A DNA stretch of 64,000 nucleotides from Minisyncoccota bacterium (GTDB lineage Bacteria; Patescibacteriota; Minisyncoccia; Minisyncoccales; GWA2-38-27): assembly GCA_028687715.1 (NCBI GenBank), contig JAQTZP010000001.1, forward strand, positions 39,876-103,875, read 5' to 3'. Of the stretch, positions 3,104 through 63,182 are shown piece by piece. The first letter of the stretch is position 1, and each line of letters begins with the position of its first letter. The notes under the pieces were generated by a model. It saw only the letters and a program-made list of their open reading frames with translations, was not told where the DNA came from and made no database searches. The position numbers and the translations under genes were made by a program.

Positions 3104-3169
3104 ATCGTTGATTATACTATCTTACTTTTTATCATTTTTAAAGTCAAACAATGTGATATTATTAATAAT

Positions 3170-3799
3170 ATGAAGCATCCTAATTTTAATGAAGAAAAAA
3201 GATTAAAAAGGAAAGGCTATAAATTTATAATAGGATTAGATGAAGTTGGAAGAGGCTGTTTAGCCGGACCTGTTTTAGCGGCTGCAGTTTATATAACTAA
3301 TAATAAGTTTAAAGATAAAGGCATCAAAGACTCAAAAAAGCTGTCTTTTAGAAAAAGAGAACAAATCTATAATGATTTAATGGCTCGTTCTGATGTCAAA
3401 TGGGGGATAGGCAGAGTTTCAGAGAAGATAATAGATAAGATAAATATCTTTGAAGCTGCAAAGCTGGCTATGAAAAAGGCTGTTTTAGATTTAGAGAGAA
3501 AGATGAATATAAAGTCTGATTTCTTGATTTTAGACGGAAACTTCAAGATAGGTATAGATACTTTGCAGAAATCAATTATCAAAGCTGATGAGAAGGTTTT
3601 ATCCTGCGCTCTTGCTTCTATTATTGCCAAGGTCAAAAGGGATAGAATTATGTCAAATTATCACAACAGATATCCAGATTATCTTTTTAATAGGAATAAA
3701 GGGTATGGGACAAAGGTTCATATCAAGCAAATTAAAAATAACGGACCCTGTTTTATCCACAGGAAAACTTTTTTTCCTGTGAAAGAAATGATAGAATAA
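3170..3799 (+). CDS. rnhB: Ribonuclease HII
   Basis: IIGLDEVGRGCLAGPVLAAAV motif. The internal ATG at 3170 is preferred, because the 3071 start would overlap the dnaE start. Confidence 0.85.
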   Translation: MKHPNFNEEKRLKRKGYKFIIGLDEVGRGCLAGPVLAAAVYITNNKFKDKGIKDSKKLSFRKREQIYNDLMARSDVKWGIGRVSEKIIDKINIFEAAKLAMKKAVLDLERKMNIKSDFLILDGNFKIGIDTLQKSIIKADEKVLSCALASIIAKVKRDRIMSNYHNRYPDYLFNRNKGYGTKVHIKQIKNNGPCFIHRKTFFPVKEMIE

Positions 3800-3827
3800 C
3801 AGAATAATACAATAAACAACTTTTTCT

Positions 3828-8952: not shown

Positions 8953-9027
8953 AACGTATTTTCGTTTACGATTATTAAAAACAATGCTACCATAATATTA
9001 ATTGGCGGCATTGTTTTTTTAACTAAA

Positions 9028-9702
9028 ATGATTAAGTTTGACATTATCACAATACTTCCTGAAACCTTTGGTTCATATTTTTCAGAAAGTTTAATAGCCA
9101 GAGCATTAAAAAAGAAGATTATAAAGATAAAGGTCCATAATTTGAGGAAATGGGCGAAAGACAAGCATAAAACTGTTGATGACAGGCCTTTTGGGGGAGG
9201 TTTAGGCATGGTTATGAAGGTTGAGCCGATTTATAGGGCTGTAAAGTCGTTAAAAGGGAAATCAAAGGCTAAAAGAAGGATAATAATGTTTACTCCCAGG
9301 GGAAAGAAGTTTGACCAAAGACTTGCGTATAAGCTTTCAAAGTTTGACCAGCTTATTTTAATATGTGGAAGATATGAAGGAGTAGACGAAAGAGTTGCAG
9401 AACATATAGCTGATATGGAATTATCAATAGGGGATTATGTGCTTATGGGAGGAGAGATTCCAGCTATGGTTTTAATAGAAACTGTATCTAGACTTATTCC
9501 CGGAGTTATCTCCAAAGAAGAGCTTTTAAAAGAAAGAATAACCAAAGATAAAGGTTTTATTGAACATGTTCAGTACACTAGACCTGAAGTTTTTGAACCT
9601 GAAAAAGGAGTAAAATGGAAGGTGCCGAAGGTTCTCCTATCGGGCAATCATAAAGAAATCGAGAAATGGAGAAAGAAATATTTAAGAGTCATTGAAAAAT
9701 AA
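9028..9702 (+). CDS. trmD: tRNA (guanine37-N1)-methyltransferase
   Basis: FDIITILPETF, DDRPFGGGLGMVMK, YEGVDERV, GGEIPAMVLIE motifs. Confidence 0.9.
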   Translation: MIKFDIITILPETFGSYFSESLIARALKKKIIKIKVHNLRKWAKDKHKTVDDRPFGGGLGMVMKVEPIYRAVKSLKGKSKAKRRIIMFTPRGKKFDQRLAYKLSKFDQLILICGRYEGVDERVAEHIADMELSIGDYVLMGGEIPAMVLIETVSRLIPGVISKEELLKERITKDKGFIEHVQYTRPEVFEPEKGVKWKVPKVLLSGNHKEIEKWRKKYLRVIEK

Positions 9703-9781: not shown

Positions 9782-9866
9782 GGGTGCGTAGTCCCGTACG
9801 GCGCGGGAGCGGTCTGTAAAACCGTCGTCATTACTGGCCCAGGTGGTTCGACTCCACTCGCACCCA
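9782..9866 (+). tRNA. tRNA-Tyr (anticodon GTA), long variable arm, no encoded CCA
   Basis: Hand fold: acceptor GGGTGCG/CGCACCC; anticodon stem GCGGT/ACCGT with loop CTGTAAA; T arm GGTGGTTCGACTCCAC. Confidence 0.8.
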
Positions 9867-10679
9867 ATGTTATCTAAAAATAGATTAGAAAAATTATATA
9901 AAAGCGGTTTATCTATAAAAAGAATATCTGAAATTGAAAATTTCCCTTACACCACTATAAAATATTGGATGAAAAGATATAATATTCCCCGCAGATCGAG
10001 AGTGGAGGCATGTTTTTACGGATATTGGGGTAAAAACAAAGAATTTTCAAGAATCCCAAAGCTTTTAACTATCGATAAAATCAAGGATTTTTATTATCGG
10101 AAGGGTTATAGTGTTAAAGAAGTAGCGGATTTACTTGGTTATTCTCCAAAAAGCATATATAGATTTATGGATAGAAATGATCTGAAGAGAAGGTCAAGTC
10201 GCGATACAAACAATCTTATTTTTATAAGGAAAAAACCTTCTTTCACTATTAAAAATGATTTAAAATTAGAAGAAGAAAAATTAAAATTAGCTGGTGTTAT
10301 GTTATATTGGGCAGAAGGAGCTAAGGATTTAAAAGAAAGAGACTGGAATACTGTTGATTTCGCAAATAGCGATCCCGAAATGATAAAAATTTTCTTAAAA
10401 TTTTTACGTGATATTTGTGGCGTCTATGAAAAACGATTAAGGGTTCAGTTATATTGTTACGTTGATCAAGATATAAATTTTTTAAAAAATCATTGGAAGA
10501 CAACTACAGGTATATCATTAGAACAATTTAATAGACCTTATATAAGAAAAGATTTTTTACCTGAAAAAAAGGGGAAAATGAAATTTGGAGTAGTTCATAT
10601 TAGATATTCGGATAAAAAGTTATTTCTACAAATAAAAGATTGGACAAGACAGTATTTGAATAAAATGTTGCCGATGTAG
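9867..10679 (+). CDS. HTH-containing LAGLIDADG-like (homing-endonuclease-like) protein filling the tRNA-Tyr/tRNA-Thr spacer
   Basis: The ATG immediately follows the tRNA-Tyr discriminator base, and the stop lies inside the first 10 nt of tRNA-Thr. Two HTH-like segments are present (LSIKRISEIENFPYTTIKYWMKRYNI; YSVKEVADLLGYSPKSIYRFM). KLAGVMLYWAEGAKD resembles a LAGLIDADG motif. Confidence 0.5.
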   Translation: MLSKNRLEKLYKSGLSIKRISEIENFPYTTIKYWMKRYNIPRRSRVEACFYGYWGKNKEFSRIPKLLTIDKIKDFYYRKGYSVKEVADLLGYSPKSIYRFMDRNDLKRRSSRDTNNLIFIRKKPSFTIKNDLKLEEEKLKLAGVMLYWAEGAKDLKERDWNTVDFANSDPEMIKIFLKFLRDICGVYEKRLRVQLYCYVDQDINFLKNHWKTTTGISLEQFNRPYIRKDFLPEKKGKMKFGVVHIRYSDKKLFLQIKDWTRQYLNKMLPM

Positions 10680-10741
10680 TTCAGTGGTAGAACACGTTCT
10701 TGGTAAGAACGAGGCCGAGAGTTCAATTCTCTCCATCGGCT
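10670..10741 (+). tRNA. tRNA-Thr (anticodon GGT)
   Basis: Acceptor GCCGATG/CATCGGC; anticodon stem CGTTC/GAACG with loop TTGGTAA; T arm GAGAGTTCAATTCTCTC. Confidence 0.85.
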
Positions 10742-10767
10742 CTTAATAAATTAAATTCCTTAAAATT

Positions 10768-12414: not shown

Positions 12415-12852
12415 ATGAGATTAATGATCTGCGGCAGTATGTATTTTGCCAAAGAGATGCTTAAAGCAAAGAAAACATTAGAAGAGCTCGGCCATGAAGT
12501 TAGGGTTCCTTCAGATGTTTATCAGTGTATTGAAAATCCTGATTTAAATATGGATTTAGAATACTGCTTGGATACTGATATTGATAAGAAGGATTTTAAT
12601 CAAGTGGCGGAAAGCGAGGGGATAGTAGTTTTGAATTATCCCAAGAATAATATCATAGGATATATAGGAGGAGCTTCTCTTATGGAAATAGGGATTGCCA
12701 GGCATCTTGGAAAGAAGATATTTTTATTGTATAATCCTCCAAGCGAGAAGGATTTAAGATACGCGCTTGAGGTAAAGGTATCAAGGCCTATAATACTTAA
12801 TGGAGATTTTAAAAACATTAATAATTATATAGATAATCGGGTCCGTAGTTAA
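12415..12852 (+). CDS. Nucleoside 2-deoxyribosyltransferase-like small Rossmannoid protein
   Basis: MRLMICGSMYF...GIVVLNY...GGASLMEIGIARHLGKKIFLL pattern. The 3' end overlaps tRNA-Trp by ~14 nt. Confidence 0.45.
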   Translation: MRLMICGSMYFAKEMLKAKKTLEELGHEVRVPSDVYQCIENPDLNMDLEYCLDTDIDKKDFNQVAESEGIVVLNYPKNNIIGYIGGASLMEIGIARHLGKKIFLLYNPPSEKDLRYALEVKVSRPIILNGDFKNINNYIDNRVRS

Positions 12853-22434: not shown

Positions 22435-24846
22435 TTGAGAAAATATATGAAATTTATAAGAGATAAATTTCAGAAAACCAAAAAGGCAGTTAAGAAAAAA
22501 ACAATAAGGCATGACGAAGAAATAATCAAGAATCTATTTTTGGGAATTGCTTCGTTTGTTTTTCTTGCGGTTATTGTTTTTCTATTCCAAGAAGAATCAA
22601 GATTTAGGCATAATTTTTTGGCATCTGTAAGTTTGACTTTGCAGAAATCTGCTCCAAGCCCCAATGTTTTCTTTGCTTCGGCTCCTGATATTTCTCAAGG
22701 ATTGCCTTCTAATAAAGTCTATCCTCAAGGCAAGATATTTCCGTTTTCAGGCATCGGCGGAAATGCAAGCATTGATAAGGCAAATATGTTTACCATGGCA
22801 GGACCCTATTATGCCCAAGATCAATCATATTATTTAGAGAGAGCTAAAGAGGCGGGGTTAAAATACATTTTTTCCGTAGGGTATAATATAAGGATGAATA
22901 TCGATAATTACGATATGCCTCCATTTAATTTGTCAGAAGAGCAGGTTGTTGAAGAAATTCGCAGCCAAATATCTCCCTATTTGCTAGATGATGCCATTTC
23001 CTGGTGGTATTTATTGCCTGAAGAATCAAGGTGGTGGCGCTCTAAAGAAATTGAATATATTAGAATTGCCTCTAATGCGATTCATAGTATCGATCCGAAG
23101 AAAAGGCCTGTTTGGATGTATGAGCCCTGCCATCGTTCTTCAGACAATCTTTCTAAAATGATTCCTTATTTAGATATTGAAGGAAAGGGAATGTATACAA
23201 ATCATGTTGATATGAAAGAATCCAGGATTTTTTGCACTTGGACTATAGAACAGGAAAAAGAAGCTATAAATATTGCCAATCGAAATGCTGTCCCGATTGC
23301 CGTTCCTGAGTTATTTGGAAATATAGTTGGAGCGGATGAATACAATCTTATTCCGAATTGGGTGCGCCACGATGTTTATTCCGCTTTGATAGCGGGAGCA
23401 AAAGGAATTGTCATTTACAAAACATATAATTCAAACACTTCTTATTACAGAGAATACTACGATGCTTATGCAAAAATAGCTAATGAATTAAACGGTAGCC
23501 TTAATTTGGGCCAGGTATTTTTATTTGGACAAAAGCGCAATGATTTAGAAGTTACAGTAATTCAGGGACCCAATACAGTTAATTTTCTCTTTCCTGCCGG
23601 TGATGTTGAATCTCCAATAATTTATCCTTCTGTTAATTTTCTTGATATAGCTTACGGAAATAATCGTTATCTTTTTTTAGTGAATTCTGCCAACGAGCCT
23701 GTTCAGACAGCAGTTCGCGGATTTCCCTTATCGCAAACTATAATTAGAGATATTTTTAACAAAAATAGCATTGTAAATAGTTCTAACGGAAGCTTTAATC
23801 TTAATCTTGCTTCGTTTGAAGTAAAAGCTTTTAAATTTGAGAAGTCTGAACCAGAAGAGCCTGAACCAGAAATTCCAGATTGTCCTTCAGATGATAATAT
23901 CTGTACAACAGAGACATATTCTAATGGAAGATGCATTTCATATTATAACACCAGCACTTGCGATGACAACAATCCCTGCACTGAAAATGACAAATGTCAA
24001 AATGGGATATGTTTTGGAACAGCGATTGACTGCAATGATAATAACTCCTGTACGGTTGACAGCTGTGTAAACGGAGCCTGCCAGCATATCTTTGACAGCA
24101 GCTTCTTCGGCTGTCAATGCATTTTAAATTCAGATTGCAATGATAATAACATTTGCACCAGCGAAGTCTGTATTAATGGAAGTTGCGTCTTTTTAAACAA
24201 TAATAATTCCTGCGATGACAACAATCCCTGCACTGAAAATGACAAATGTCAAAATGGGATATGTTTTGGAGATTTAAAAGACTGCAATGATAACATCAGC
24301 TGTACAGAGGATTTCTGTTCTGGAGGAGTATGCATTCATTCAAGCGAAAAGTGCGGCTGTTTGAGCGATAGCGAGTGCAACAGCAATAATACCTGCGTAA
24401 ATGACTTTTGCAATCCAACAACGATGAAATGCGATAAGACATTTAACACTAATTTATGCAATGATAATAATCCGTTTACTATAAATGACAGGTGCCATGA
24501 AGGCTTTTGTTTTGGCGAATTGATATGCAATTTTAACTCCAGATGCGATGCCGAAAAAGGAGAAAGCTGTCTTAATTGTTCCTTTGACTGCGGTTTCTGT
24601 ACGGTCTATGAATCTTCGGCAGATAATAAAAATATTACTAAAACTGCTGCTAAAAGAACAATAAGCGAAGAAGATAAATCTCTTTTTTCCGAAGGCATTA
24701 AAAGAGAAAAGTCAGCGCCTTTTTCTTCTTTAAAAGCGCTCAAAGATTTAGTTATAGAATTCTTTAAAAGCTTGGAAGGAAAAATAATTCTATTCAGCTC
24801 AATAGCAATTTTTATAATTATACAAATCATCCTTATGGTATTATAA
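22435..24846 (+). CDS. Large surface protein with tandem Cys-rich CxDxNxCTxDxCxxGxC repeats and C-terminal TM anchor
   Basis: N-terminal TM/signal segment. At least 7 Cys-rich repeat units between aa ~490 and 700. C-terminal helix ILFSSIAIFIIIQIILMVL. Confidence 0.5.
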   Translation: MRKYMKFIRDKFQKTKKAVKKKTIRHDEEIIKNLFLGIASFVFLAVIVFLFQEESRFRHNFLASVSLTLQKSAPSPNVFFASAPDISQGLPSNKVYPQGKIFPFSGIGGNASIDKANMFTMAGPYYAQDQSYYLERAKEAGLKYIFSVGYNIRMNIDNYDMPPFNLSEEQVVEEIRSQISPYLLDDAISWWYLLPEESRWWRSKEIEYIRIASNAIHSIDPKKRPVWMYEPCHRSSDNLSKMIPYLDIEGKGMYTNHVDMKESRIFCTWTIEQEKEAINIANRNAVPIAVPELFGNIVGADEYNLIPNWVRHDVYSALIAGAKGIVIYKTYNSNTSYYREYYDAYAKIANELNGSLNLGQVFLFGQKRNDLEVTVIQGPNTVNFLFPAGDVESPIIYPSVNFLDIAYGNNRYLFLVNSANEPVQTAVRGFPLSQTIIRDIFNKNSIVNSSNGSFNLNLASFEVKAFKFEKSEPEEPEPEIPDCPSDDNICTTETYSNGRCISYYNTSTCDDNNPCTENDKCQNGICFGTAIDCNDNNSCTVDSCVNGACQHIFDSSFFGCQCILNSDCNDNNICTSEVCINGSCVFLNNNNSCDDNNPCTENDKCQNGICFGDLKDCNDNISCTEDFCSGGVCIHSSEKCGCLSDSECNSNNTCVNDFCNPTTMKCDKTFNTNLCNDNNPFTINDRCHEGFCFGELICNFNSRCDAEKGESCLNCSFDCGFCTVYESSADNKNITKTAAKRTISEEDKSLFSEGIKREKSAPFSSLKALKDLVIEFFKSLEGKIILFSSIAIFIIIQIILMVL

Positions 24847-26984: not shown

Positions 26985-27060
26985 GGGCGGGAGGCAGCGG
27001 CTTTTTCCTAAAGTCGAGAATTTCTGATAAAATAAGTTCGAGCGGAGTCATATAGATACA
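26985..27060 (+). repeat. Degenerate fourth copy (D) of the junction element: half hairpin plus promoter-like TGATAAAAT plus AGTTCGAGC
   Basis: gggcgggaggcagcggctttttcc...gaatttctgataaaataagttcgagcggagtcatata aligns with copies B and C (58360-58420; 61665-61735). Confidence 0.5.
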
Positions 27061-34388: not shown

Positions 34389-35138
34389 TTATAAATTATA
34401 TTCATCAAGCGGTTCTGGAATTATAACTTTAAGTTCATTATTTTTAACTTTGTCTTTTATTTCTTCTAAATCATTTCTTCTGAAATCCCTTTGTAAATGA
34501 GTCAGCGCCAAGTATTTTATGTTATTTCCTTCTGCCATTTTTACTAAATCCATAATACAGGCGTGGCCTATTATTTTTTTATCATATAAATATGCTTCAT
34601 GTATTAATAAATCACAATTTCTGTATAGTTTTTCTGTATTTTCATTAAACATTCCGTCTCCGCTATAAGATATTGATTTTTCTTTATTTTTTGTCCTTAT
34701 CGCTAAATTGTTCCCGGAATGAACAGTGTCAGCAAAAGATAATTCTAAATCATTAAATTTTATTCGAGTGTTTTTATCAACTTCTATAAATTTTATTTTA
34801 AATTTAAAATTCTTAGAAAAGCCAGGATAAGCAAATTCCATAACCCTTTCAAAATTATCTTTAAATCCGTTTTGACAGATAATAGTTATTGGTTTCTTTC
34901 TTTCTTCTTCCCACATTCTCATAAATAAAGCCGTCAAACCAAAATAATGGTCTGCGTGCTGATGGCTGATATAAACAGCGTCTAAAAGATTTTGGTCTGG
35001 ATTATACTTCCACAATTGCTTTGGTATGTCATATCCGCAGTCTAAAAGCAGTTTTGTCTTTTCTGTTATTATAAGGTGGGAATTATTCGGCAGATTTTCA
35101 TCAAATGCTTCACCTACTCCTAAAAATACAATTTTCAT
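34389..35138 (-). CDS. Metallo-beta-lactamase-fold hydrolase (RNase Z/BN-like)
   Basis: MKIVFLGVGEAF, LLLDCG, ISHQHADHYFG. The internal ATG at 35138 is preferred over 35225. Confidence 0.65.
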   Translation of the reverse strand: MKIVFLGVGEAFDENLPNNSHLIITEKTKLLLDCGYDIPKQLWKYNPDQNLLDAVYISHQHADHYFGLTALFMRMWEEERKKPITIICQNGFKDNFERVMEFAYPGFSKNFKFKIKFIEVDKNTRIKFNDLELSFADTVHSGNNLAIRTKNKEKSISYSGDGMFNENTEKLYRNCDLLIHEAYLYDKKIIGHACIMDLVKMAEGNNIKYLALTHLQRDFRRNDLEEIKDKVKNNELKVIIPEPLDEYNL

Positions 35139-35252
35139 AGTTACGCTGTATAAAAGAATATCATTGGAGTTGAAAATAATATCTTTATCATATTTCTGTT
35201 TTCCTACAGTGCAAACTATTGACAAAATATAATAGTTTGCTAAAGTGAAAAT

Positions 35253-55504: not shown

Positions 55505-55578
55505 GCGAGGTTAGTATACTGGCATTATGCAACCTTCCCAAGGTTGAGAAGCGGGTTCGATTCCCGTACCTCGCTCCA
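55505..55578 (+). tRNA. tRNA-Gly (anticodon CCC), CCA encoded
   Basis: Acceptor GCGAGGT/ACCTCGC; anticodon stem CAACC/GGTTG with loop TTCCCAA; T arm GCGGGTTCGATTCCCGT. Confidence 0.8.
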
Positions 55579-55692
55579 CAATCAAACTTTTTTCGCTTTT
55601 CTTGAAATTTTTCGTGGCGGCGCTTTGCGCCGCCCGCGAAAATTTGGGAAAATTTCCAGAAAGTCAGATTATTGTGCGTTTATACAACCTCA

Positions 55693-55868
55693 CTCGAACT
55701 CATTTTATCAAAAATTCTTGAGAAAAACAATTGTCCCGCCCCGCTTGTGCGGGGCGGGACAGAAAACCCAAAAGTCGCTCGGGCGGGGCGGGAAGAAAAA
55801 GGGGTGTGGGGAAAATGAATTCCCGCCCCCGCCCTCGCTTTCTATGCGGGAAAAATTTATTTTTTAAA
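55693..55868 (-). repeat. Junction element copy A (two GC-rich hairpins, T-tract, promoter-like box); perfect inverted copy of 58231..58406
   Basis: Base-by-base comparison with the reverse complement of 58231-58406: 176/176 identical. Hairpin 1 is GTCCCGCCCCGC-TTGT-GCGGGGCGGGAC. Hairpin 2 is GGGCGGGGCGGGAA...TTCCCGCCCCCGCCC. Confidence 0.9.
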
Positions 55869-56318
55869 AATCATTTTAATCCTCGGCTCACCGTCTCCAA
55901 AATAATTTTCCTTTGGTTTTCCGACTTGTTTAAATCCAAAAAATTTATATATATGCATCGCTGCTGCATTGTCTGGATGTGTAAGCAGTTCAACTATTTT
56001 TACTTCTTTCAAATCTTCGAGTAAAATTTTTATGGCTTCTTTTCCAATTCCTTGGCCCTTATATTTTGAATTAACACAGAGCCCACTAATATATGCTGTA
56101 TTTTTATTTTTCATCTCATATGAAATATCACCCACGATTTCACCGTCCATAATAATGGCATAAACCATTGCATTTCCTTTTGCCAGCTCATCCAGCCATT
56201 CTTTTTCAGTCAGCATTGCTGAATATGTTTTTGAAGACGCAGTTTTTTCAATTTCAATCAATGTTGGAATGTCTTCCTCCTCAATTTTTCGTAAACTGAT
56301 TTTTAATTTATTTTTCAT
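55857..56318 (-). CDS. GNAT family N-acetyltransferase
   Basis: CVNSKYKGQGIGKEAIKILLE (acetyl-CoA loop Q/RxxGxG/A). The last 4 codons lie inside repeat A. Confidence 0.8.
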   Translation of the reverse strand: MKNKLKISLRKIEEEDIPTLIEIEKTASSKTYSAMLTEKEWLDELAKGNAMVYAIIMDGEIVGDISYEMKNKNTAYISGLCVNSKYKGQGIGKEAIKILLEDLKEVKIVELLTHPDNAAAMHIYKFFGFKQVGKPKENYFGDGEPRIKMIFKK

Positions 56319-56322
56319 AGGA

Positions 56323-56715
56323 TTACCTATTCAGTAAGAAATTTTTAATCTCTGGAGATATGTCTTGAATTTTCTGGTATTTAATTATTAAGTCGGCAAT
56401 CCCCCTTGTTGTGTCCTTAATTTGTGTTTCGTGTTTCATAATAACAATAACTTTTTTACCAAAAGCGTAAGCAATCCCGGCCTCATATGCCCTACCAGTC
56501 GGCTTGTCTGTCATATCGATCAAAAGAGCATCAGATTTTTTAATTTCGTCTTTTGTTTTTTGCATTAAATCTTTTGGATTATCAAAAACTTTTTGATAAT
56601 TTTCTACATCTCGTATAAAACAAAAGTCTTCAAAACCTGCGGTTTTTACTAAAGAACAAAGACTCTCTATATTTTGTTTGCTATCACCAAAAGATGCGGT
56701 AATAAAAATTCTCAT
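56323..56715 (-). CDS. Nucleoside 2-deoxyribosyltransferase-like small Rossmannoid protein
   Basis: MRIFITASF...ALLIDMTDKPTGRAYEAGIAYAFGKKVIVIMKH. Confidence 0.5.
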   Translation of the reverse strand: MRIFITASFGDSKQNIESLCSLVKTAGFEDFCFIRDVENYQKVFDNPKDLMQKTKDEIKKSDALLIDMTDKPTGRAYEAGIAYAFGKKVIVIMKHETQIKDTTRGIADLIIKYQKIQDISPEIKNFLLNR

Positions 56716-56716
56716 T

Positions 56717-57265
56717 TTATTTTTTTGAAATTAAACTCAAAAGTAAGGGAAACTTTTTGTATGGCTGATTAAACATATTAGAACCCATATGGCCTTCGTG
56801 TTTTATAATTTGCGTGCCACCAAGATTGTCAAAAAATAACCTACCTTGTTTATCGTTGTATTGCCATGGGTCATCATCTGAATTTATGTAATAGAATTCT
56901 TCTGCTTTGTCTTTTATTTTTGCCCAATCAAAATCATCAACGCTGTTTTCACTGTCTGCATTTTTCCGTAATGCTTTAGCATAACCAGATACCAAAATCG
57001 CCTGTTTGATTTTTACATCCAGTTTTTCTAAAACACTTGGAATTATTTGAGCGCCGGCCGAATGCCCAATAATAACTGTTTCAGAAGTAAACTCCCAATT
57101 TTCCAAAATAAAAGGCAACCAATCTTTGCGATTTGGTTTGTCGCTTGCAGGAAGTTGCGGAAGCCAGACTTTATATCCTATTTTTTCTAATTCCTCTTTA
57201 AGCCAAGGAAACCAAAAATCGGTTGGTTTGTCTTTTGTTCCGTGTAATATAATTGCGTTTTTCAT
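56717..57265 (-). CDS. Alpha/beta serine hydrolase (YdeN/RBBP9-like)
   Basis: AIILHGT..., nucleophile elbow IIGHSAGA, C-terminal HEGHMG. Confidence 0.65.
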   Translation of the reverse strand: MKNAIILHGTKDKPTDFWFPWLKEELEKIGYKVWLPQLPASDKPNRKDWLPFILENWEFTSETVIIGHSAGAQIIPSVLEKLDVKIKQAILVSGYAKALRKNADSENSVDDFDWAKIKDKAEEFYYINSDDDPWQYNDKQGRLFFDNLGGTQIIKHEGHMGSNMFNQPYKKFPLLLSLISKK

Positions 57266-57344
57266 AATTATTTTATCCTACCAAAAAATTGTGCTAATTA
57301 AAAGTTAAAGCCCCGTCGATTGCTCGTACGGGGCTCTTGCGATG

Positions 57345-57995
57345 TCAGCTGCAGCGCAGGCACTTCTTGCGATTGTGCCGGGACAGAATCCTTACCGTAC
57401 TAGACGGAGTTGGAATCTGCGATTCGATTTCGTAGACACAATTGAAGACGATGCCACAGCTTTTGCACTTTCCGACTTGCTCACTACTATCAGGTACAGG
57501 ACCCTGAACAGACTTGTTCCACCCTGGAGCGTGGGTTTCGCAAAGTCCGCCACCGGGCGTGGGTGTGTCGCAGAGTGCACACGTGCACTGGCAACTCTCC
57601 AAGTGTTCGTAACAGACGTAACAAATACACTTGCAGAAAGCAGTATCACGGTTGCACTTGTAGCACCAGGCAGGATCGTCGTAATCGTCATCATCATAGC
57701 CGTCGTCCGGCTCGATGATAGAACGGTTTTCTTCGATTGCCCGGAATTCCTCCTGCATCCACTTCCACTCTTGGTCGGTGATTTGGCCAGAGATCAGGTG
57801 AGCTGAGTTAAAGTCACCTGCCTCGGGACAATTACCACCAGTCACCTTTTTCAAGGCGCAGTCGTAGCACAACGGCTCGTCCTGCTTACGCCCAAGAGCG
57901 TACCCCCAATATGTGATTTCGTCGGAATCATTCCTCTCAAAGAACTTGTTGCAAATTTTACACTTCTGGCTTGAAACTTTCTTCTGCTTCGACAT
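57345..57995 (-). CDS. G+C-rich Cys-rich protein (216 aa) with several CxxC pairs and an acidic DDGYDDDDYDD patch
   Basis: KCKICNKFF...CYDC, WCYKCNRDTAFCKCICYVCYEHLESCQCTCALCD, KCKSCG, KKCLRCS. Own promoter (TTGACA-17-TAATAT at 58178-58150, minus strand). Terminator AGCCCCGT...ACGGGGCT (57310-57336). Confidence 0.6.
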   Translation of the reverse strand: MSKQKKVSSQKCKICNKFFERNDSDEITYWGYALGRKQDEPLCYDCALKKVTGGNCPEAGDFNSAHLISGQITDQEWKWMQEEFRAIEENRSIIEPDDGYDDDDYDDPAWCYKCNRDTAFCKCICYVCYEHLESCQCTCALCDTPTPGGGLCETHAPGWNKSVQGPVPDSSEQVGKCKSCGIVFNCVYEIESQIPTPSSTVRILSRHNRKKCLRCS

Positions 57996-58230
57996 TTCTC
58001 AATCTCCTTTTACCGGGTTTGTAAACAAACTGACGATAATTGGAGATATACCCGCTTGCTCCTTTCGGAGGGGTGAAGGGCTGAACCAATCTCTCTTGAT
58101 CCTGATTCCCAACAGACCAAGAGAATATATCTAAATTTGCTCCGTAATTATATTATCATATTATTAAATATATGTCAATAGTGTGTGGTCTAAACAGTGT
58201 GGGTGGCCACAACAACACAATAAAAAAATA

Positions 58231-58406
58231 TTTAAAAAATAAATTTTTCCCGCATAGAAAGCGAGGGCGGGGGCGGGAATTCATTTTCCCCACACCCCTT
58301 TTTCTTCCCGCCCCGCCCGAGCGACTTTTGGGTTTTCTGTCCCGCCCCGCACAAGCGGGGCGGGACAATTGTTTTTCTCAAGAATTTTTGATAAAATGAG
58401 TTCGAG
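58231..58406 (+). repeat. Junction element copy B (archetype orientation: hairpin 2, hairpin 1 plus T-tract, TTGTTT-17-TAAAAT, ATGAGTTCGAG)
   Basis: Identical to the reverse complement of 55693-55868. Lies in the divergent region between the Cys-rich gene and the kinase-like gene. Confidence 0.9.
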
Positions 58407-58514
58407 CAGAATTGTATATATGCTCCAGTATATTTACAACCACGCTTTAAATAAGACGTTGTTGTCTTATTTAAAGATCGTTCTTTCACAACAAAAATAA
58501 GGAGGACTCTGAAA

Positions 58515-59144
58515 ATGATCGTGCAAAAGTCTCTGTTCGTTACTTTTGAGGGCCCCAACGGCATCGGGAAGACTACCGTTATCAAAGATGTCGCGCAAAA
58601 ACTGAGCGTTTTGGGATGCAGTCTTCTGTGTACTAAAGAACCCACCGGTTCGTCGCTTGGTGACTTCTTGAGAAAAGCAGAGGAGTTATACGGGAGAGAA
58701 GTTCTCGCCTGTATTGCGGCGGCGGATCGATATTTTCACATAGAAAAAGAAATCGCACCAGCGTTAGCGACAGGTAGAATCGTTCTTTCCGACCGATACG
58801 TCGAATCGTCACTGGTACTTCAACGTCTTGACGGGTGTTCGCTCGAATTTATCTGGAGCATTAACTCGCAAATTCTTGTTCCTGATTTAAGCATCATTTT
58901 CTTCGCTGATCCTGTGATCATCGGACAACGACTCGTAACTAAGAGAACAAAGTTGAGTCGTTTTGAGCGCGATGAAACGAGAAAGCAAGAAATGTTCTTC
59001 TACCACGAAGCGGCAGAGTTCATCGCTCAAAAAGGATTTCATGTCCTTTTGTTGGAGAACGAAAAACAATCAGTGGGTGATACTTCTGAATACATTGTGG
59101 TTGAAGTCCAAAGGCTACTCAAAAAAAAGGAGGAAGCATCATGA
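58515..59144 (+). CDS. Thymidylate-kinase-family P-loop protein (dTMP-kinase-like)
   Basis: LFVTFEGPNGIGKTT (P-loop), TKEPTGSSLG, SDRYVESSLVLQ (DRY/DRH-like). AAGGAGG RBS. Confidence 0.65.
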   Translation: MIVQKSLFVTFEGPNGIGKTTVIKDVAQKLSVLGCSLLCTKEPTGSSLGDFLRKAEELYGREVLACIAAADRYFHIEKEIAPALATGRIVLSDRYVESSLVLQRLDGCSLEFIWSINSQILVPDLSIIFFADPVIIGQRLVTKRTKLSRFERDETRKQEMFFYHEAAEFIAQKGFHVLLLENEKQSVGDTSEYIVVEVQRLLKKKEEAS

Positions 59145-60211
59145 AAAAACCGATCATTTCCGTTAACCAAATGATGTCCTGTTATTTCCGTACTTCAGTT
59201 CAATCACCTTACCGGAAAGCGCTCGTGCAGATTACCGAATGGTGCAATCTGCATTGTTCGCATTGCTTTGTCTCGGCCGGACAATACGGTGACACCATGT
59301 CGCTGGAAAGTGTCCGTGATATTCTTGTGCCTCGTCTCAAAGAATGTCGCGTGCTGAACGTAACGCTTACTGGCGGCGAGCCATTCGCGCACCCTAACGT
59401 CATCGAGATTGTATCGCTTTGCAAAGATGCTGGCATGAAAGTTGGCATCTGTACGAACGCAACTTGCATTAGCGAAGATCAGATGAAAGCGCTCGCAGCG
59501 TTGGGAGCACATTGCAACGTCAGTTTGGACGGTTTCTCTCCGGAGAGTCATGGCAGGTTTCGCGGCGATAAAGCGTCGTTTGCAACCACCATTTCAACCA
59601 TTGAGATGGTGGCCAGATACGGTTTGTTGCAAGGGTTTTTGGTGACTCCTAACAATCTCGCCGAGGTCGAGGAGTATGCAAAGATTTGCGAGTTCGCTAC
59701 GGTAAACGGTGCAACGTATGTGTTGATGAATCCGCTTTCGTCCATGGGAAGAGGCGTAAAGACGGCGGGAAAGCTCGGAGTTTCCAACGAGGTAATGCGT
59801 CAGATTGCCAACGTAACTTCACAGTTCGCGGACAAAGTCGAGATAGTACCTATCCGATTTCCGAACGAAAAGAAGTTGCCGCTTACGGGATGCGAAGCGG
59901 GCAATATTATCTACGTTTTTACCCTCGGCGAACTCACGGTATGTCCCTATCTAGTGTTTTCAGCACGGACGCCGCAGAGTCAACACAAGGCAGAAGAATT
60001 TATCGTTGGCAATATCTTTCGCGATGCCAATATTGCCGTTCGCCTTGATGAATACAAACTCCTTGAGCGGTATCGTCTCGGTGGTAATCCGACATGCGGA
60101 GGATGTCGTCTTAACGCCGAGTGCGGCAAAGGATGTCCCGCAGCGATCATTTCCTCTGGCAAGCGAATAGAGGAAATGGACGCAGAGGTGTGTCCGGTCT
60201 TCATTCGGTAA
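59141..60211 (+). CDS. Radical SAM enzyme with C-terminal SPASM/twitch-type auxiliary-cluster domain
   Basis: CNLHCSHCF (CxxxCxxC), LTGGEPFAHP. C-terminal GCEAG...CPY...CGGCRLNAECGKGCPA...C. ATGA overlap with the kinase-like gene. Confidence 0.8.
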   Translation: MKKPIISVNQMMSCYFRTSVQSPYRKALVQITEWCNLHCSHCFVSAGQYGDTMSLESVRDILVPRLKECRVLNVTLTGGEPFAHPNVIEIVSLCKDAGMKVGICTNATCISEDQMKALAALGAHCNVSLDGFSPESHGRFRGDKASFATTISTIEMVARYGLLQGFLVTPNNLAEVEEYAKICEFATVNGATYVLMNPLSSMGRGVKTAGKLGVSNEVMRQIANVTSQFADKVEIVPIRFPNEKKLPLTGCEAGNIIYVFTLGELTVCPYLVFSARTPQSQHKAEEFIVGNIFRDANIAVRLDEYKLLERYRLGGNPTCGGCRLNAECGKGCPAAIISSGKRIEEMDAEVCPVFIR

Positions 60212-60217
60212 ACATAA

Positions 60218-60256
60218 CCCGCAGTGGAATTTTAACATTCTACTGCGGGATTTTTT
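60218..60256 (+). terminator. Intrinsic terminator after the radical SAM gene
   Basis: CCCGCAGT-loop-ACTGCGGG followed by ATTTTTT. Confidence 0.75.
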
Positions 60257-60277
60257 ATGGTAAAATAAAAAAATAAT

Positions 60278-61021
60278 ATGAATAATCTATCAATTTTTAT
60301 CTGGAATATAGCAAATCCGTCGTTTGAGCGTGCCGTTAAACAGGCAGAATGGATTCGCAGGAGAAAAGAAGACATTTTTGTCTTAACCGAGATAAAAGTA
60401 AGTAGCGGATGTTTGTTTCTTAAAAAATATTTCCAAGCATATGGGTATTACGTACTCTTCCCCGATATTGAAGATAGGGAATACGGAGTAATGATTTTGA
60501 GTAAGATTCCCCTGTCAGGGGGGACTCTTCAATATATGGATTTTATCCCATCGCGAGCTATGTATGGGAAGTTTTCATTTTTTGATAAAGATATAGAGAT
60601 TGGAGGTATTTATGTTCCTTCCCGCGATGCAAGCGAGAAGAAAATCAAAAAGAAGAAACTTTTTCTACAAACTCTTTTAGATGCTCTCCAAAAATCGAAC
60701 TTAGACAATCCGCGTATCGTTTGCGGAGATTTTAATATACTTGAACCTAATCATAATCCGCATTATCCTTTCTTCAAAGATTGGGAATATGATTTTTACA
60801 GTCAATTATCGAAACATCAATTAAGTGACGCGTGGCGTTTTTTGTATCCATCCAAACAAGAATATAGTTGGATTGGAAAAACGGGTGATGGATATCGATA
60901 TGATTATTGTTTTGTTTCAAATGTTTTATTGCCGTCGATAAAAAATTCGTTTTACCTCCATGAGCCAAGACTTCAAAAATTAAGCGACCATTCCGCGCTT
61001 ATTACTGAATTACATTTATGA
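60278..61021 (+). CDS. Endonuclease/exonuclease/phosphatase (EEP, ExoIII-like) family protein
   Basis: IFIWNIAN...DIFVLTEIK...CGDFNI...SDHSALITEL. Confidence 0.7.
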   Translation: MNNLSIFIWNIANPSFERAVKQAEWIRRRKEDIFVLTEIKVSSGCLFLKKYFQAYGYYVLFPDIEDREYGVMILSKIPLSGGTLQYMDFIPSRAMYGKFSFFDKDIEIGGIYVPSRDASEKKIKKKKLFLQTLLDALQKSNLDNPRIVCGDFNILEPNHNPHYPFFKDWEYDFYSQLSKHQLSDAWRFLYPSKQEYSWIGKTGDGYRYDYCFVSNVLLPSIKNSFYLHEPRLQKLSDHSALITELHL

Positions 61022-61617
61022 TTGAAGTAGAAAAAAAGTTTATATTGAACGAGCAAGATAAAAAGCGATTAACAAAGAACGCTCAATTTCTCAATGAGCG
61101 CATTTTTACTGATATTTATTACGATACAGAAATTTTTTCTCTAACATCAAAAGATAAATGGTTTCGTTCTCGTGAGGGCAGATTTGAGCTGAAACTCCCT
61201 CTACACGACGGAGTCGACAGATTAGCTGACCAATACGATGAGTTAGAAGATGAGCAGAAAATAAGAGAAGCTCTAAATCTGCCCTCTAACGGAAATCTTG
61301 CTGATGATTTGATAAAAGCCGGATATTCACCATTTTGCACTTGTAAAACTAATCGAAGAAAGTATAAGAAAGAGCCATTTATTATTAACCTTGATATTAT
61401 TGATTTTCAAGATTTTACCTACAACATCGGAGAAATTGAGTTGATGATTAGCAATAAATCTGAAATTGAAGATGCGAGTAAAAAGATAATGTATTTTGCA
61501 AAGACACAGAATCTTGTAGTCACACCAGTGCGGGGGAAAATTATTGAATATTTAAAACGTGCAAAACCAAATCACTATCAGACTCTTGTGAAGAGAGGGG
61601 TTGTTGAGGATTTTTAA
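61018..61617 (+). CDS. CYTH-domain (triphosphate tunnel metalloenzyme) protein
   Basis: MIEVEKKFIL (ExExK signature) and later RFELKLP, IGEIELM beta-strand acidic/basic pattern. ATGA overlap with the EEP gene. Confidence 0.7.
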   Translation: MIEVEKKFILNEQDKKRLTKNAQFLNERIFTDIYYDTEIFSLTSKDKWFRSREGRFELKLPLHDGVDRLADQYDELEDEQKIREALNLPSNGNLADDLIKAGYSPFCTCKTNRRKYKKEPFIINLDIIDFQDFTYNIGEIELMISNKSEIEDASKKIMYFAKTQNLVVTPVRGKIIEYLKRAKPNHYQTLVKRGVVEDF

Positions 61618-61620
61618 CCC

Positions 61621-61740
61621 TCTTTTTGCCCGCGAACCGACAGGTTTTCCTGCCCGCCCCCGCCGTTCGGCGGGACGGGACGTTGTTTTTTATAGGAATT
61701 CTTAATAAAATGAGTTCGAGCGTAGTTGTGAATATACTCC
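61621..61740 (+). repeat. Junction element copy C (diverged: single imperfect GC hairpin plus T-tract, TTGTTT-17-TAAAAT, ATGAGTTCGAGC)
   Basis: GCCCGCCCCCGCC-GTTC-GGCGGGACGGGAC followed by GTTGTTTTTT, then cttaataaaatgagttcgagcgtagttgtgaatatactcc. Aligns with copy B. Confidence 0.7.
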
Positions 61741-61824
61741 ATAATCAAACTTAACTCTTTTTCAGATACTTTTTGATGGACTTCCATTTTTAAACCCATA
61801 TTTTATTATTAAATAAAAATAATA

Positions 61825-63018
61825 ATGTTTAAGAAATCAATAATCTTAATTATTCTTTTTATTATTCTCTTAGGATTAATTTTAGTCTACATAGATAAAT
61901 CTGAGTTAGGCTATGTAGGAAAAGATAACCTGAATAACGAATTAACAGATGAAGAGCTTAAAGAGAAAATAGGGCAGATGATAATGACGGGTTTTAGGGG
62001 TACTGAAATTTTAGAGGGTTCTGATGCGTATAATATGATTAAAGATGTTAAAGTCGGAGGCGTAGTGCTTTTTGACTACGATGTTTTCTCAAATAGTTTC
62101 CCTAGGAATATCGTAGATTATGACCAGACTAAAAAACTTATCTCTGATATTCAAAGCTATTCTTCAATTCCTCTGTTTGTAGCTGTTGACGCAGAAGGCG
62201 GCAAGGTAAACCGCTTAAAAGAAGAATATGGATTTACAGCTGTTCTTTCAGCAGAAGAAATGGGCCGGGATAAAACATTAAAAACTACAGATAAAGAATC
62301 TTTAAAATTAGCTCTGGAGCTGAAAGAATTAGGGTTTAATATGAATCTTGCCCCAGTTGTTGATTTGAATATCAACCCTTCTAATCCGATTATTGGAGCC
62401 TTGGGCCGTTCTTTTTCTCAAGATAAAGAAGAAACTGCAAAACAGGCAGAAGTATTTATAGAAAACCATCTTAAAAATGGCATCGTATGCGTCGCAAAGC
62501 ATTTCCCGGGCCAGGGGAGCGCGGAAGAGGATACTCATTTGGGCTTAGCGGATATAACAGAGAGCTATAAAGAGGAGGAGTTTTTTCCTTATTATTATCT
62601 TAATGAAAAGGGATTGTTAAAGGCAGTTATGGCAGCTCATACAATAAATAGAAATATTGATAATGATTACCCCGCAGCCTTATCTTCTGTTTTCTTGGAA
62701 GATATTTTAAGGAATCAAATCGGGTTTGGTGGAGTTATTATCTCAGACGATATGCAAATGTCAGCAATAACCAATAACTATAATTTAGATGAGGCGGTGA
62801 TTAAAGCTGTAAATGCGGGAATAGACATAATTCTTATCTCTAACAATACTTCATACGGCTATGATAAAGACATAGCGCATAAAGTTAGAGATATAATCTT
62901 TAATGCTGTAAGAGACAACAGAATTAAAGAAGATAGAGTTATAGAGTCGTATAACCGCATTTTAGATTTAAAAAGAGAGTTTAGAATAATCCTATTCAAA
63001 ACTAGTTATTTTTGTTAG
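61825..63018 (+). CDS. nagZ: Glycoside hydrolase family 3 beta-N-acetylhexosaminidase (NagZ-like) with N-terminal anchor
   Basis: VAVDAEGGKVNRL, NLAPVVDL, KHFPGQGS..DTH, ISDDMQM. Confidence 0.75.
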   Translation: MFKKSIILIILFIILLGLILVYIDKSELGYVGKDNLNNELTDEELKEKIGQMIMTGFRGTEILEGSDAYNMIKDVKVGGVVLFDYDVFSNSFPRNIVDYDQTKKLISDIQSYSSIPLFVAVDAEGGKVNRLKEEYGFTAVLSAEEMGRDKTLKTTDKESLKLALELKELGFNMNLAPVVDLNINPSNPIIGALGRSFSQDKEETAKQAEVFIENHLKNGIVCVAKHFPGQGSAEEDTHLGLADITESYKEEEFFPYYYLNEKGLLKAVMAAHTINRNIDNDYPAALSSVFLEDILRNQIGFGGVIISDDMQMSAITNNYNLDEAVIKAVNAGIDIILISNNTSYGYDKDIAHKVRDIIFNAVRDNRIKEDRVIESYNRILDLKREFRIILFKTSYFC

Positions 63019-63034
63019 AATAATAAAATATCCC

Positions 63035-63106
63035 GCCAACGTAGCTCAGCGGCAGAGCAGGGCTTTCGTAAAGCTCAGGTCGTCGGTTCAAGTCCGACCG
63101 TTGGCT
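63035..63106 (+). tRNA. tRNA-Thr (anticodon CGT)
   Basis: Acceptor GCCAACG/CGTTGGC; anticodon stem GGGCT/AGCTC with loop TTCGTAA; T arm GTCGGTTCAAGTCCGAC. Confidence 0.85.
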
Positions 63107-63182
63107 CTTTTTGACTAATTAATCTATCCGTGTTAATTTAAATTCAGTTCCTTTTAGGTTTCTCTTCTTGGAGGGCTGTTAA

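Follow-up and report, generated by a model that had tools for sequence, protein, structure and literature searches.

The closest functional analogue of the DNA described here is SCCmec (CcrAB/CcrC), which likewise relies on a large serine recombinase (LSR) and has the 3′ end of a conserved gene as its insertion site. tRNA genes are unusual as targets of serine integrases, and in the bacteria of the Candidate Phyla Radiation (CPR/Patescibacteria, hereafter CPR), whose genomes are tiny, few mobile elements have been recognised and gene exchange is poorly understood. We analysed a stretch of 64,000 nucleotides from a Minisyncoccota bacterium (contig JAQTZP010000001.1, positions 39,876 to 103,875 of the forward strand; hereafter the window), in which the 6.2-kb block that follows a tRNA-Gly(CCC) gene consists of accessory DNA with its anchor at the 3′ end of that tRNA. 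A sequence-only reading had described this block as one tRNA-anchored island; the accessory DNA and its anchoring stood, and in place of the single element two elements in tandem gave the better account. The block is likely made up of two relics in tandem, both without a recombinase, of a small integrative element equipped with an LSR of the A118/Ccr type.

Recombinase elements beside tRNA genes in relatives

Loci from other CPR genomes or from metagenome scans are designated here by L and a number. Three of them (L023, L032 and L060) carried a gene of ~500 codons between an arrangement of a repeated module, a short core and a trailer on one side and an inverted trailer-core-tRNA-Gly arrangement on the other; the module is called M and the trailer X below. 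The product of this gene, which was taken from the relatives and not from the window, showed the Resolvase, Recombinase and Zn_ribbon_recom domains of an LSR (Pfam, L060:4751-6301), and its sequence matched the solved C-terminal domain of the A118 integrase (PDB 4kis, E = 2e-12). An LSR placed between M-core-X and a tRNA-joined inverted X was found in L021, L023, L032, L049, L060, L089, L091 and L092, and a metagenome scan with the LSR alignment contributed 80 further loci. Among the full-length LSR loci with downstream sequence, 48 of 57 had a tRNA gene that was convergent with the LSR gene and overlapped it in a fixed register, the overlap measuring 28 nt in 43 of these 48 loci and 26–27 nt in the other five. 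The partner tRNAs represented 24 isoacceptors, and LSR genes 85–91% identical in DNA sequence adjoined different tRNAs. The family comprised at least about 8000 clusters at E ≤ 1e-40 (all but one of the 8000 scored candidates), of which the best 120 were 70–89% identical to the query, many of them on contigs of ~2 kb whose ends fall in the flanking repeats.

Read outward from the tRNA, the intact layout consisted of tRNA-core-X, the convergent LSR gene, X′-core′-M′ as the near arm, cargo genes, and M-core as the far arm, followed by the old downstream DNA. X corresponds, as reverse complement, to the final ~45 codons of the LSR gene, which makes the trailer in the window the antisense of an LSR tail: AATCTGACTTTC is the complement of the codons for E-S-Q-I, and the GC hairpin of X encodes WAALCAA in the LSR consensus. 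The inverted repeat formed by X was present in 46 of 56 loci, where it covered the last 113–148 nt of the LSR gene, mostly at 96–100% identity, with the inverted copy lying 52–260 nt upstream of the LSR start. A second inverted repeat, formed by M, was detected in 23 of the 56 loci, again mostly at 96–100% identity, and enclosed 1.3–5.9 kb of other genes. Its arms were 63–487 nt long (mostly 95–250 nt) and started exactly where the X repeat ended; many contigs ended in the far M arm. Inverted M arms around cargo are also present in the window (modules A and B, below).

Alignment of the junctions in twelve loci revealed that the near junction (M-core-X) was identical to the far junction on its left side and to the tRNA junction on its right side, the identity switching within 2–6 nt at C72-N73-C74 of the tRNA. 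The core tracked the discriminator of the tRNA, being CTCC with tRNA-Gly and CACCA with tRNA-Arg, tRNA-Leu and tRNA-Glu (and with tRNA-Tyr in L021). Such a short switch is as expected for a serine recombinase, with no long target duplication in intact elements. What lay beyond the far arm was in some loci a further tRNA of the same cluster and in others (L110, L116, L118, L120) an old, degenerate X. At L089, the tRNA beyond the far arm was tRNA-Thr(CGT); the genes for tRNA-Gly(CCC) and tRNA-Thr(CGT) are adjacent in L051 (1975-2232) and split by the element in L089 (5468-5541 and 11521-11593), which holds a cargo different from that of the window at the same tRNA-Gly(CCC) site. Intact LSR genes beside tRNA-Gly(CCC) with flanking genes shared with the window were found together with FtsB and LepA in L023, with FtsB/DivIC in L049, L089 and L093, and with LepA in L136. 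Two loci, L020 and L063, came from one assembly, giving several copies in that genome.

M itself is a unit of up to ~200 nt: two GC hairpins with T runs come first, the AT-rich 24-mer AATTTTTGATAAAATGAGTTCGAG and a TATAAA-like box come next, and after these the core C-N-C-C-A. A scan for the 24-mer through one genome per GTDB species, with four degenerate positions, returned 81 stretches, nearly all of them from Patescibacteria genome bins of many named lineages, against a chance expectation of ~0.07 by our own uniform-composition estimate; many of the stretches lay at contig ends and some formed inverted pairs. The core of M was followed variously by a tRNA gene 7–17 nt downstream, by a ribosome-binding site and start codon, or by a conserved trailer of the form C(T/A)CCA-nRATnWRACTTTC…GGGCGGCGC-loop-GCGCCGCCC. 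Several genomes have this trailer after tRNA-Gly and after other tRNAs, and the window has it after its tRNA-Gly. The M motif was absent from the viral contigs of IMG/VR, on which ground a phage origin was rejected, and we found nothing in the searchable literature on the motif or on CPR serine recombinases at tRNAs.

Several loci departed from the common layout. L096 (1-1983) carries an intact LSR gene with M-core-X on both sides, arms 94% identical, the core CGCAC and no tRNA; it closely resembles module A and the adjoining inverted X of the window and may represent an un-integrated or attP-like configuration. X′-core′-M′ was also seen in L128, L132 and L153, and contigs of the L096/L128 type may reflect ambiguous assembly. 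The palindromic contig L148, with a 476-nt inverted repeat at both ends, was considered as an excised circle and rejected, as de Bruijn graphs collapse inverted repeats. L131 holds two tandem LSR genes (412-1935 and 3036-4353) on a 4.8-kb contig, the second of them frameshifted and beside tRNA-Arg(CCT), an arrangement consistent with nested insertions. In L043 (1378-1462) one M core follows another as a direct repeat at a distance of 61 nt, with a short X start after the first.

The tRNA-Gly block of the window

In the window, a fragment of 36 codons from the LSR C-terminus overlapped the 3′ end of tRNA-Gly by 28 nt, in the canonical register of the intact loci. An intact LSR gene converging on the tRNA with the ~28-nt overlap was not found here, and since this remnant is all that survives, the window holds a relic rather than a functional member of the element family. 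The earlier suggestion of an immobilised remnant was thereby borne out, the recombinase having been lost. An nhmmer search of the window with an X profile built from 52 tRNA-adjacent LSR tails located three copies of X (Table 1). The trailer of the tRNA (X_t) was nearly identical to the trailers of L094 and L095, both of which have intact LSR genes, and the inverted copy (X_A) was close to the M-core-X arms of L096. These two copies have diverged from each other and are fused at a shared hairpin (55613-55638), so that the window retains both the tRNA-core-X junction and the inverted X joined to M. The third copy is a marginal remnant after module C.

The GC-rich junction repeats, of which three had been noted in the block, were all there; they proved to be copies of one unit, M, rather than separate repeats, and a long inverted repeat among them had been overlooked. 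Copies A (55676-55878, minus strand) and B (58221-58423) form an inverted repeat of 203 nt with 95% identity, 2342 nt apart, that encloses the minus-strand gene block. Copy C (about 61619-61742) is a direct copy of B at 74–80% identity and is 74% identical to the near arm of L100. A profile of the M core matched the 64 kb at four places, and three of these belong to the tRNA-Gly locus. Module A overlaps the final 22 nt of the GNAT gene, and its hairpin and T run at 55761-55732 scored as terminator-like. The fourth copy, module D, is a solo partial M preceded by a degenerate GC hairpin and followed by a short X-like stretch, with no LSR nearby; it lies between an OMP-decarboxylase-like gene on the minus strand and a 74-aa open reading frame (ORF) on the plus strand.

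The near-perfect direct repeat that had been taken to delimit the island is real: CTCCACAATCAAACTT at 55574-55589 and CTCCATAATCAAACTT at 61737-61752 agree at 15 of 16 positions, and they were the sole matches of the 16-mer in the 64 kb at ≤2 mismatches. Shuffled sequence gave 0.14 matches on average, and 2 of 100 shuffles reached two. A second, chance repeat of 15/16 occurred within the same 7.5 kb (59988/62444), which makes a repeat of this quality unremarkable on its own; the weight of the pair comes from its position and its family membership and not from the bare match. The 16-mer is made up of the 5-nt core at the end of the tRNA and the first 11 nt of X, the start of X that is seen beside many tRNAs and M copies across CPR genomes. 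Its right-hand copy sits within module C, where the first 11 nt of the X remnant complete it (X in L116 begins with the identical sequence, TAATCAAACTT), and the aligned positions of modules A and B are similar; it is therefore a member of the repeat family and not a free-standing attachment site. As a classic duplication of an att target at a tRNA the repeat failed, because a mere 5 nt derive from the tRNA and the other 11 nt from the tail of the recombinase gene. Nor did any far-end repeat reproduce a tRNA 3′ segment of the length usual for tyrosine-integrase islands (at least 15–20 nt), the share of the tRNA being limited to CTCCA. The two boundaries of the block coincide with two junction cores.

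The eight genes of the block fall into two cargo segments. The plus-strand segment, S2 (Tmk-like, radical SAM, EEP and CYTH), is the cargo of an intact element in another genome: over 3168 nt it was 81.6% identical in nucleotide sequence to the cargo of L100, with 81–84% amino-acid identity, and in L100 the cassette lies between inverted M arms, with an intact LSR, at tRNA-Gly(TCC). Cassettes of the S2 type were also found beside tRNA-Gly(TCC) in L173 and L176-L178; L173 has M arms, no LSR and a decayed cassette, and in L176-L178 the cassette comes with a perfect 42-nt tRNA-derived direct repeat and without M. In L177 this repeat (9022-9063 and 12600-12641) consists of the last ~20 nt of tRNA-Gly(TCC) and 22 nt of flank, with neither M nor a recombinase, and a third, partial fragment of the tRNA 3′ end lies at 9135-9164; the bracketing repeat looks like a classic att signature reached by a different route. 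Homologues of the radical SAM protein that were 80–88% identical occurred on contigs of ~3.3 kb, the length of the interval from module B to module C, and homologues of the flanking NagZ reached only 67–70%, none of them above 70%. An AT-rich hairpin with a 14-bp stem (58445-58476), just upstream of the Tmk ribosome-binding site, is kept in position in L100 (about 700-730) and marks the left edge of the travelling cassette.

The EEP protein of S2 is ExoIII-like, the Tmk protein dTMP-kinase-like and the radical SAM protein of the SPASM type; for the latter, the best NCBIfam matches were SPASM-type maturases, below every cut-off, and the closest structures were BlsE and SkfB. A candidate assignment of the radical SAM protein as a prokaryotic viperin (pVip) was rejected, as the PADLOC match covered residues 30-140 only and the NCBIfam viperin model scored 58.6 bits against a cut-off of 180. 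Judged from these domain assignments, the S2 products point to nucleotide or nucleoside chemistry, possibly defensive. The minus-strand segment, S1, lies between inverted M arms, like the cargo in L060, L089, L091, L092 and L100. No counterpart of S1 was found in the intact elements, its genes share no recognisable theme, and its Cys-rich protein had no relative among families or solved structures. Across 21 elements the cargo was heterogeneous and of an accessory type, including XRE regulators, DNA methylases (one kind with a TaqI-like specificity domain), ThsB-TIR, NUDIX, CYTH, Ddl, Vut_1 and Ig-like surface proteins.

Other claims made from the sequence also held. ARAGORN and Rfam agreed on tRNA-Gly(CCC), all the proposed genes except that of the Cys-rich protein had Pfam matches, and the mosaic composition was evident from a GC content of 0.30 to 0.52 across the block and its flanks: 0.31–0.36 from GNAT through the hydrolase, 0.48–0.52 over the Cys-rich and radical SAM genes, ~0.5 also over Tmk, and 0.30–0.40 in the flanks. 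No recombinase gene was present, as had been stated: domain searches found no recombinase or transposase domain in any ORF of at least 180 aa in the 64-kb window and no tyrosine integrase beside the tRNA, and tblastn found no LSR there. Rfam returned the tRNA only; a weak match to Pxr RNA (26 bits against 80) was rejected. The block is flanked by FtsB/DivIC (Pfam) on one side and the GH3 protein NagZ on the other, and the order MurJ-LepA-FtsB-tRNA-Gly(CCC) is common to the window, L009 and L023. The tRNA-Gly(CCC) gene and a tRNA-Thr(CGT) gene (63035-63107) are separated in the window by the island and nagZ, which raises the question of whether nagZ was also a late arrival.

Table 1. Positions in the 64-kb window of the anchor tRNA, the junction parts, the M modules and the genes of the block
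Feature	Position	Strand	Basis
tRNA-Gly(CCC), anchor	55505..55578	+	ARAGORN; Rfam tRNA 55.9 bits
LSR relic, last ~36 codons	55550..55663	-	BLASTP vs LSR P0121 residues 481-516, 50%, E = 5e-6; tblastn agrees
Junction core CTCCA, final 5 nt of tRNA-Gly(CCC)	55574-55578	+	sequence
X_t, tRNA trailer	55579..55659	+	X profile 55572-55659, E = 4e-7; GC hairpin 55613-55638
X_A, inverted X	55616..55680	-	X profile 55616-55678 (-), E = 2e-10; ends at core CGCAC
Module A, near arm M	55676..55878	-	two GC hairpins, hyperconserved 24-mer, TATAAA-like box, core; inverted repeat 95%
Module A, profile match	55672-55727		M profile, E = 7e-16
Cargo S1: GNAT, NDT-like, Ser_hydrolase, Cys-rich	55857..57995	-	Pfam; GC 0.31 to 0.52
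GNAT	55857-56318	-	Pfam
NDT-like	56323-56715	-	Pfam
Ser_hydrolase	56717-57265	-	Pfam
Cys-rich protein	57345-57995	-	without Pfam match
Module B, far arm M	58221..58428	+	right inverted-repeat arm, ends GCTCCA; M profile 58372-58428, E = 1e-16
Cargo S2: Tmk-like, radical SAM/SPASM, EEP, CYTH	58466..61629	+	homology to L100 cargo
Thymidylate_kin (Tmk-like)	58515-59144	+	Pfam
Radical_SAM	59141-60211	+	Pfam
Exo_endo_phos (EEP)	60278-61021	+	Pfam
CYTH	61018-61617	+	Pfam
Module C, M	61619..61742	+	hairpin, 24-mer, core CTCCA 61737-61741; M profile 61688-61742, E = 4e-13
X remnant after module C	61742..61779	+	X profile 61737-61779, E = 0.039, marginal
GH3/NagZ, beyond block	61825-63018		Pfam
Module D, solo partial M	27014..27060	+	M profile, E = 3e-13; no tRNA nearby

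Three further observations concern the remainder of the window. An ORF of 278 aa (9843-10679) with homeodomain-like helix-turn-helix matches (HTH_23, HTH_28, HTH_38, Terminase_5) fills the gap between tRNA-Tyr (9782-9866) and tRNA-Thr(GGT) (10670-10742) and, as called, overlaps both tRNA ends. An ORF of 803 aa (22435-24846) had no Pfam match and contains tandem repeats of 105–252 nt at 23890-24318; its product is probably a surface protein, because the internal repeats carry a Cys/Asp/Asn-rich motif. A metallo-beta-lactamase-fold protein is encoded at 34389-35225, with a weak match to the anti-Pycsar protein Apyc1 (33.6 bits, below the cut-off of 50).

Explanations for the block

For the chemistry of integration and the order of events we infer the following course. 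The LSR would recombine M-core-X, as an attP-like site, with the 3′ end of the tRNA as attB at about positions 72-74, by a short crossover and without long target duplication. A new element would enter the same tRNA ahead of an older one, turning the far junction into M-core-old X, and the 16-nt “direct repeat” would result from such a tandem insertion. The recombinase genes would then have been lost, which would explain why none is present in the block. Element 1 would begin with the tRNA core at 55574, end with the core of module B at 58428 and have kept 36 LSR codons, modules A and B and S1, in the order tRNA-core-X_t-hairpin-X_A′-core′-M_A′, S1, M_B-core. Its LSR gene may have been removed by a deletion between the palindromic hairpins of X and X′: as the hairpin is palindromic, its copies in X and X′ are also direct repeats of each other, and deletion between them would remove the LSR and leave exactly the fused X_t/X_A structure. 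Element 2 would be reduced to S2, the far arm C and about 40 nt of the older X.

The part played by M is harder to assign. It may be a promoter that fires outward into genes separated from that of the tRNA, an arm for the recombinase or an accessory factor, or both. It is not the general promoter of the organism, because the 64 kb contain only four copies and one locus accounts for three of these; M as a generic promoter was ruled out on these copy numbers and on the lack of a sigma-70 score. By reading of the sequence, a canonical promoter resembling TTGCTT-N17-TATAAT lies between the upstream X and the LSR start in L089 (9870-9900), with equivalents in L091 and L100, and because the LSR would thus have a promoter of its own, M is probably not the LSR promoter. 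Transcripts from M would run into the X hairpin before reaching the LSR gene. Two other candidates were set aside. M as a structured RNA or tRNA fragment has a GTTCGAG T-loop-like motif, but by reading it has no T-stem and the distance to CCA is wrong. M and X as a miniature inverted-repeat transposable element would account for the palindromic look of the flank and the inverted X, for which the end of the LSR gene and a second, inverted copy of it, joined at the hairpin, are a better explanation.

Several points weigh against a tandem pair of LSR relics. The old X, LSR and near arm that the model predicts in the interval from module B to S2 are not there, so a second, illegitimate deletion must be assumed, and S2 is flanked by direct rather than inverted copies of M. 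X_t and X_A are about two-thirds alike by eye, as against 96–100% in most intact elements, and they resemble different lineages, X_t being of the L095 type and X_A of the L096 type (core CGCAC); one simple deletion is therefore insufficient. The model leaves unexplained the inverted duplicate of the junction in every element, and short-read assemblies cannot fix the orientation of segments between inverted repeats. M was not scored as a sigma-70 promoter in a promoter scan, and the window yielded no intact LSR. Neither an empty site nor a presence/absence pair came to light among close relatives: a check by way of NagZ met homologues at 67–70% identity whose neighbourhoods were not conserved, and exact-protein look-ups of NagZ, FtsB and GNAT returned the same sample only, or nothing. 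Lastly, the L177 repeat, in its setting without M, implies that another integration route exists for S2 cargo.

The competing explanation that survives best is a domesticated inversion system, which we nevertheless regard as improbable. The LSR would here be a host invertase flipping segments through the M and X inverted repeats in the manner of a shufflon or of phase variation; M and X would be terminator or promoter modules of the host, the eight genes would be residents and block 1 would be invertible. The repeats suit this picture, being 96–100% identical within genomes and different between genomes, yet the flipping of either segment leaves every junction sequence as it was, with no effect on expression evident. 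Orientation speaks on both sides: the cargo of L089 and of the window reads in the direction of the near arm, that of L060, L091 and L092 in the direction of the far arm, and L173 and L177 hold one and the same cassette in opposite orientations at the same site, whereas in 32 of 32 cases the LSR gene that follows a module copy reads in the direction of M. The LSR is highly conserved (70–89% identity) and sits amid housekeeping genes, as a host invertase might; however, its neighbours include 24 tRNA isoacceptors, which vary even at about 90% LSR DNA identity, a single genome may hold several copies (L020 and L063, same assembly), and the same cassette recurs in different hosts at different tRNAs. 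As to cargo, the surface Ig-like proteins in L060 and L089 and the absence of the motif from viral contigs would fit a host inversion system, and the DNA methylases and the Thoeris ThsB TIR-like domain are typical of mobile DNA.

Far less probable is a tRNA island made by a tyrosine integrase, with the 16-mers as attL and attR and the integrase gene later lost. The repeat does span the 3′ end of the tRNA and does mark both edges of a block of atypical composition, but the tRNA accounts for only 5 nt of it, the remaining 11 nt and about 70 nt beyond them are LSR tail, and the right-hand copy is embedded in module C. The L177 cassette, bracketed by its perfect 42-nt tRNA-derived direct repeat, has the appearance of such an island; no tyrosine integrase turned up among the called genes of the fetched loci, however, and the loci that share tRNA-Gly(CCC) and its flanks with the window (L023, L049, L089, L093, L136) carry an LSR. 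That the arrangement has no recombination meaning at all, M and X being ordinary terminator or promoter repeats and the 16-mer a by-product or chance, is very unlikely: a second 15/16 repeat does arise nearby by chance, M hairpins do score as terminators and some M copies immediately precede tRNAs or genes that have ribosome-binding sites, but against it stand the count of M copies (only four in 64 kb, three of which are at the tRNA-Gly locus), the fixed-register LSR-tRNA overlap, the chimeric junctions and the LSR remnant in the window.

The element family and known systems

If the block is a pair of LSR relics, it could belong, as we propose tentatively, to a family of miniature elements with a serine integrase that is very large in CPR/Patescibacteria. 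The members would insert at essentially any tRNA (at ~72-74), have an integrase ORF that reads into the tRNA, always carry an inverted duplicate of the junction and pile up in tandem. Such elements may be a main vehicle in these bacteria for cassettes of one to four genes, the kinds in question being defence genes, DNA methylases, surface proteins and nucleotide-modifying operons. The inverted junction duplicate places the integrase and the cargo each between near-perfect inverted repeats, as in the 2-micron plasmid. We found no description of an LSR element family of CPR in the searchable literature, and the family, whose architecture is unusual and highly regular, seems to be a variant of serine-integrase elements that has not been described before.

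Should this be true, the elements would provide a simple and abundant route of cassette exchange in CPR bacteria and would account for many of the contig breaks beside tRNAs in metagenome-assembled CPR genomes. They would also offer a set of compact serine integrases with natural targets at tRNA 3′ ends, of interest for genome engineering, whose specificity may depend partly on the base at the discriminator position. For the window, an island without an integrase becomes an explained relic, and the Tmk-radical SAM-EEP-CYTH operon is flagged as a horizontally travelling unit.

The resemblance to SCCmec goes beyond the type of recombinase and the insertion at a 3′ gene end. Both systems show successive elements stacked in tandem at a single site and pseudo-elements that lack a recombinase and are bounded by short repeats of the site sequence; in both, the cargo is small and variable. 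The best NCBIfam match of the CPR LSR was indeed CcrB, at 128.7 bits against a cut-off of 900, which places it outside the Ccr family. SCC elements target rlmH/orfX, whereas the CPR elements use the 3′ ends of tRNAs of many isoacceptors; unlike SCC, they have a recombinase ORF that reads into the target gene, measure only about 4–8 kb and contain two pairs of near-perfect inverted repeats. With the serine integrases of phages and of integrative and conjugative elements (A118, phiC31, Bxb1, TP901-1, TnpX/TndX) they share the Resolvase, Recombinase and zinc-ribbon domains and a junction switch confined to a few bases, which fits a 2-bp crossover. The CPR elements lack genes for phage functions or conjugation, however, and the inverted duplicate of their own attachment junction sets them apart.

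P4-like tRNA islands of the tyrosine type are similar in their anchor at a tRNA 3′ end, their atypical composition, their variable cargo and their tandem accretion. The CPR elements differ from these in the class of recombinase, in sharing the last 3–6 nt of the tRNA rather than a duplicated 3′ segment, and in a recombinase gene that converges on the tRNA and overlaps it. SSV1 likewise has its attachment site at or inside the recombinase ORF and a tRNA as its target; its recombinase is of the tyrosine type and the gene is split on integration, whereas the CPR crossover lies at the 3′ extreme of the ORF and leaves the gene whole. Finally, the Hin, Gin and Cin segments and the yeast 2-micron FLP system resemble the CPR elements in having a recombinase gene and a second segment, each between inverted repeats. 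The CPR elements are distinct from them in using an LSR, in having repeats of 63–487 nt compared to sites of about 26 bp, and in showing no evident expression switch, the differences in cargo orientation being seen between genomes only.

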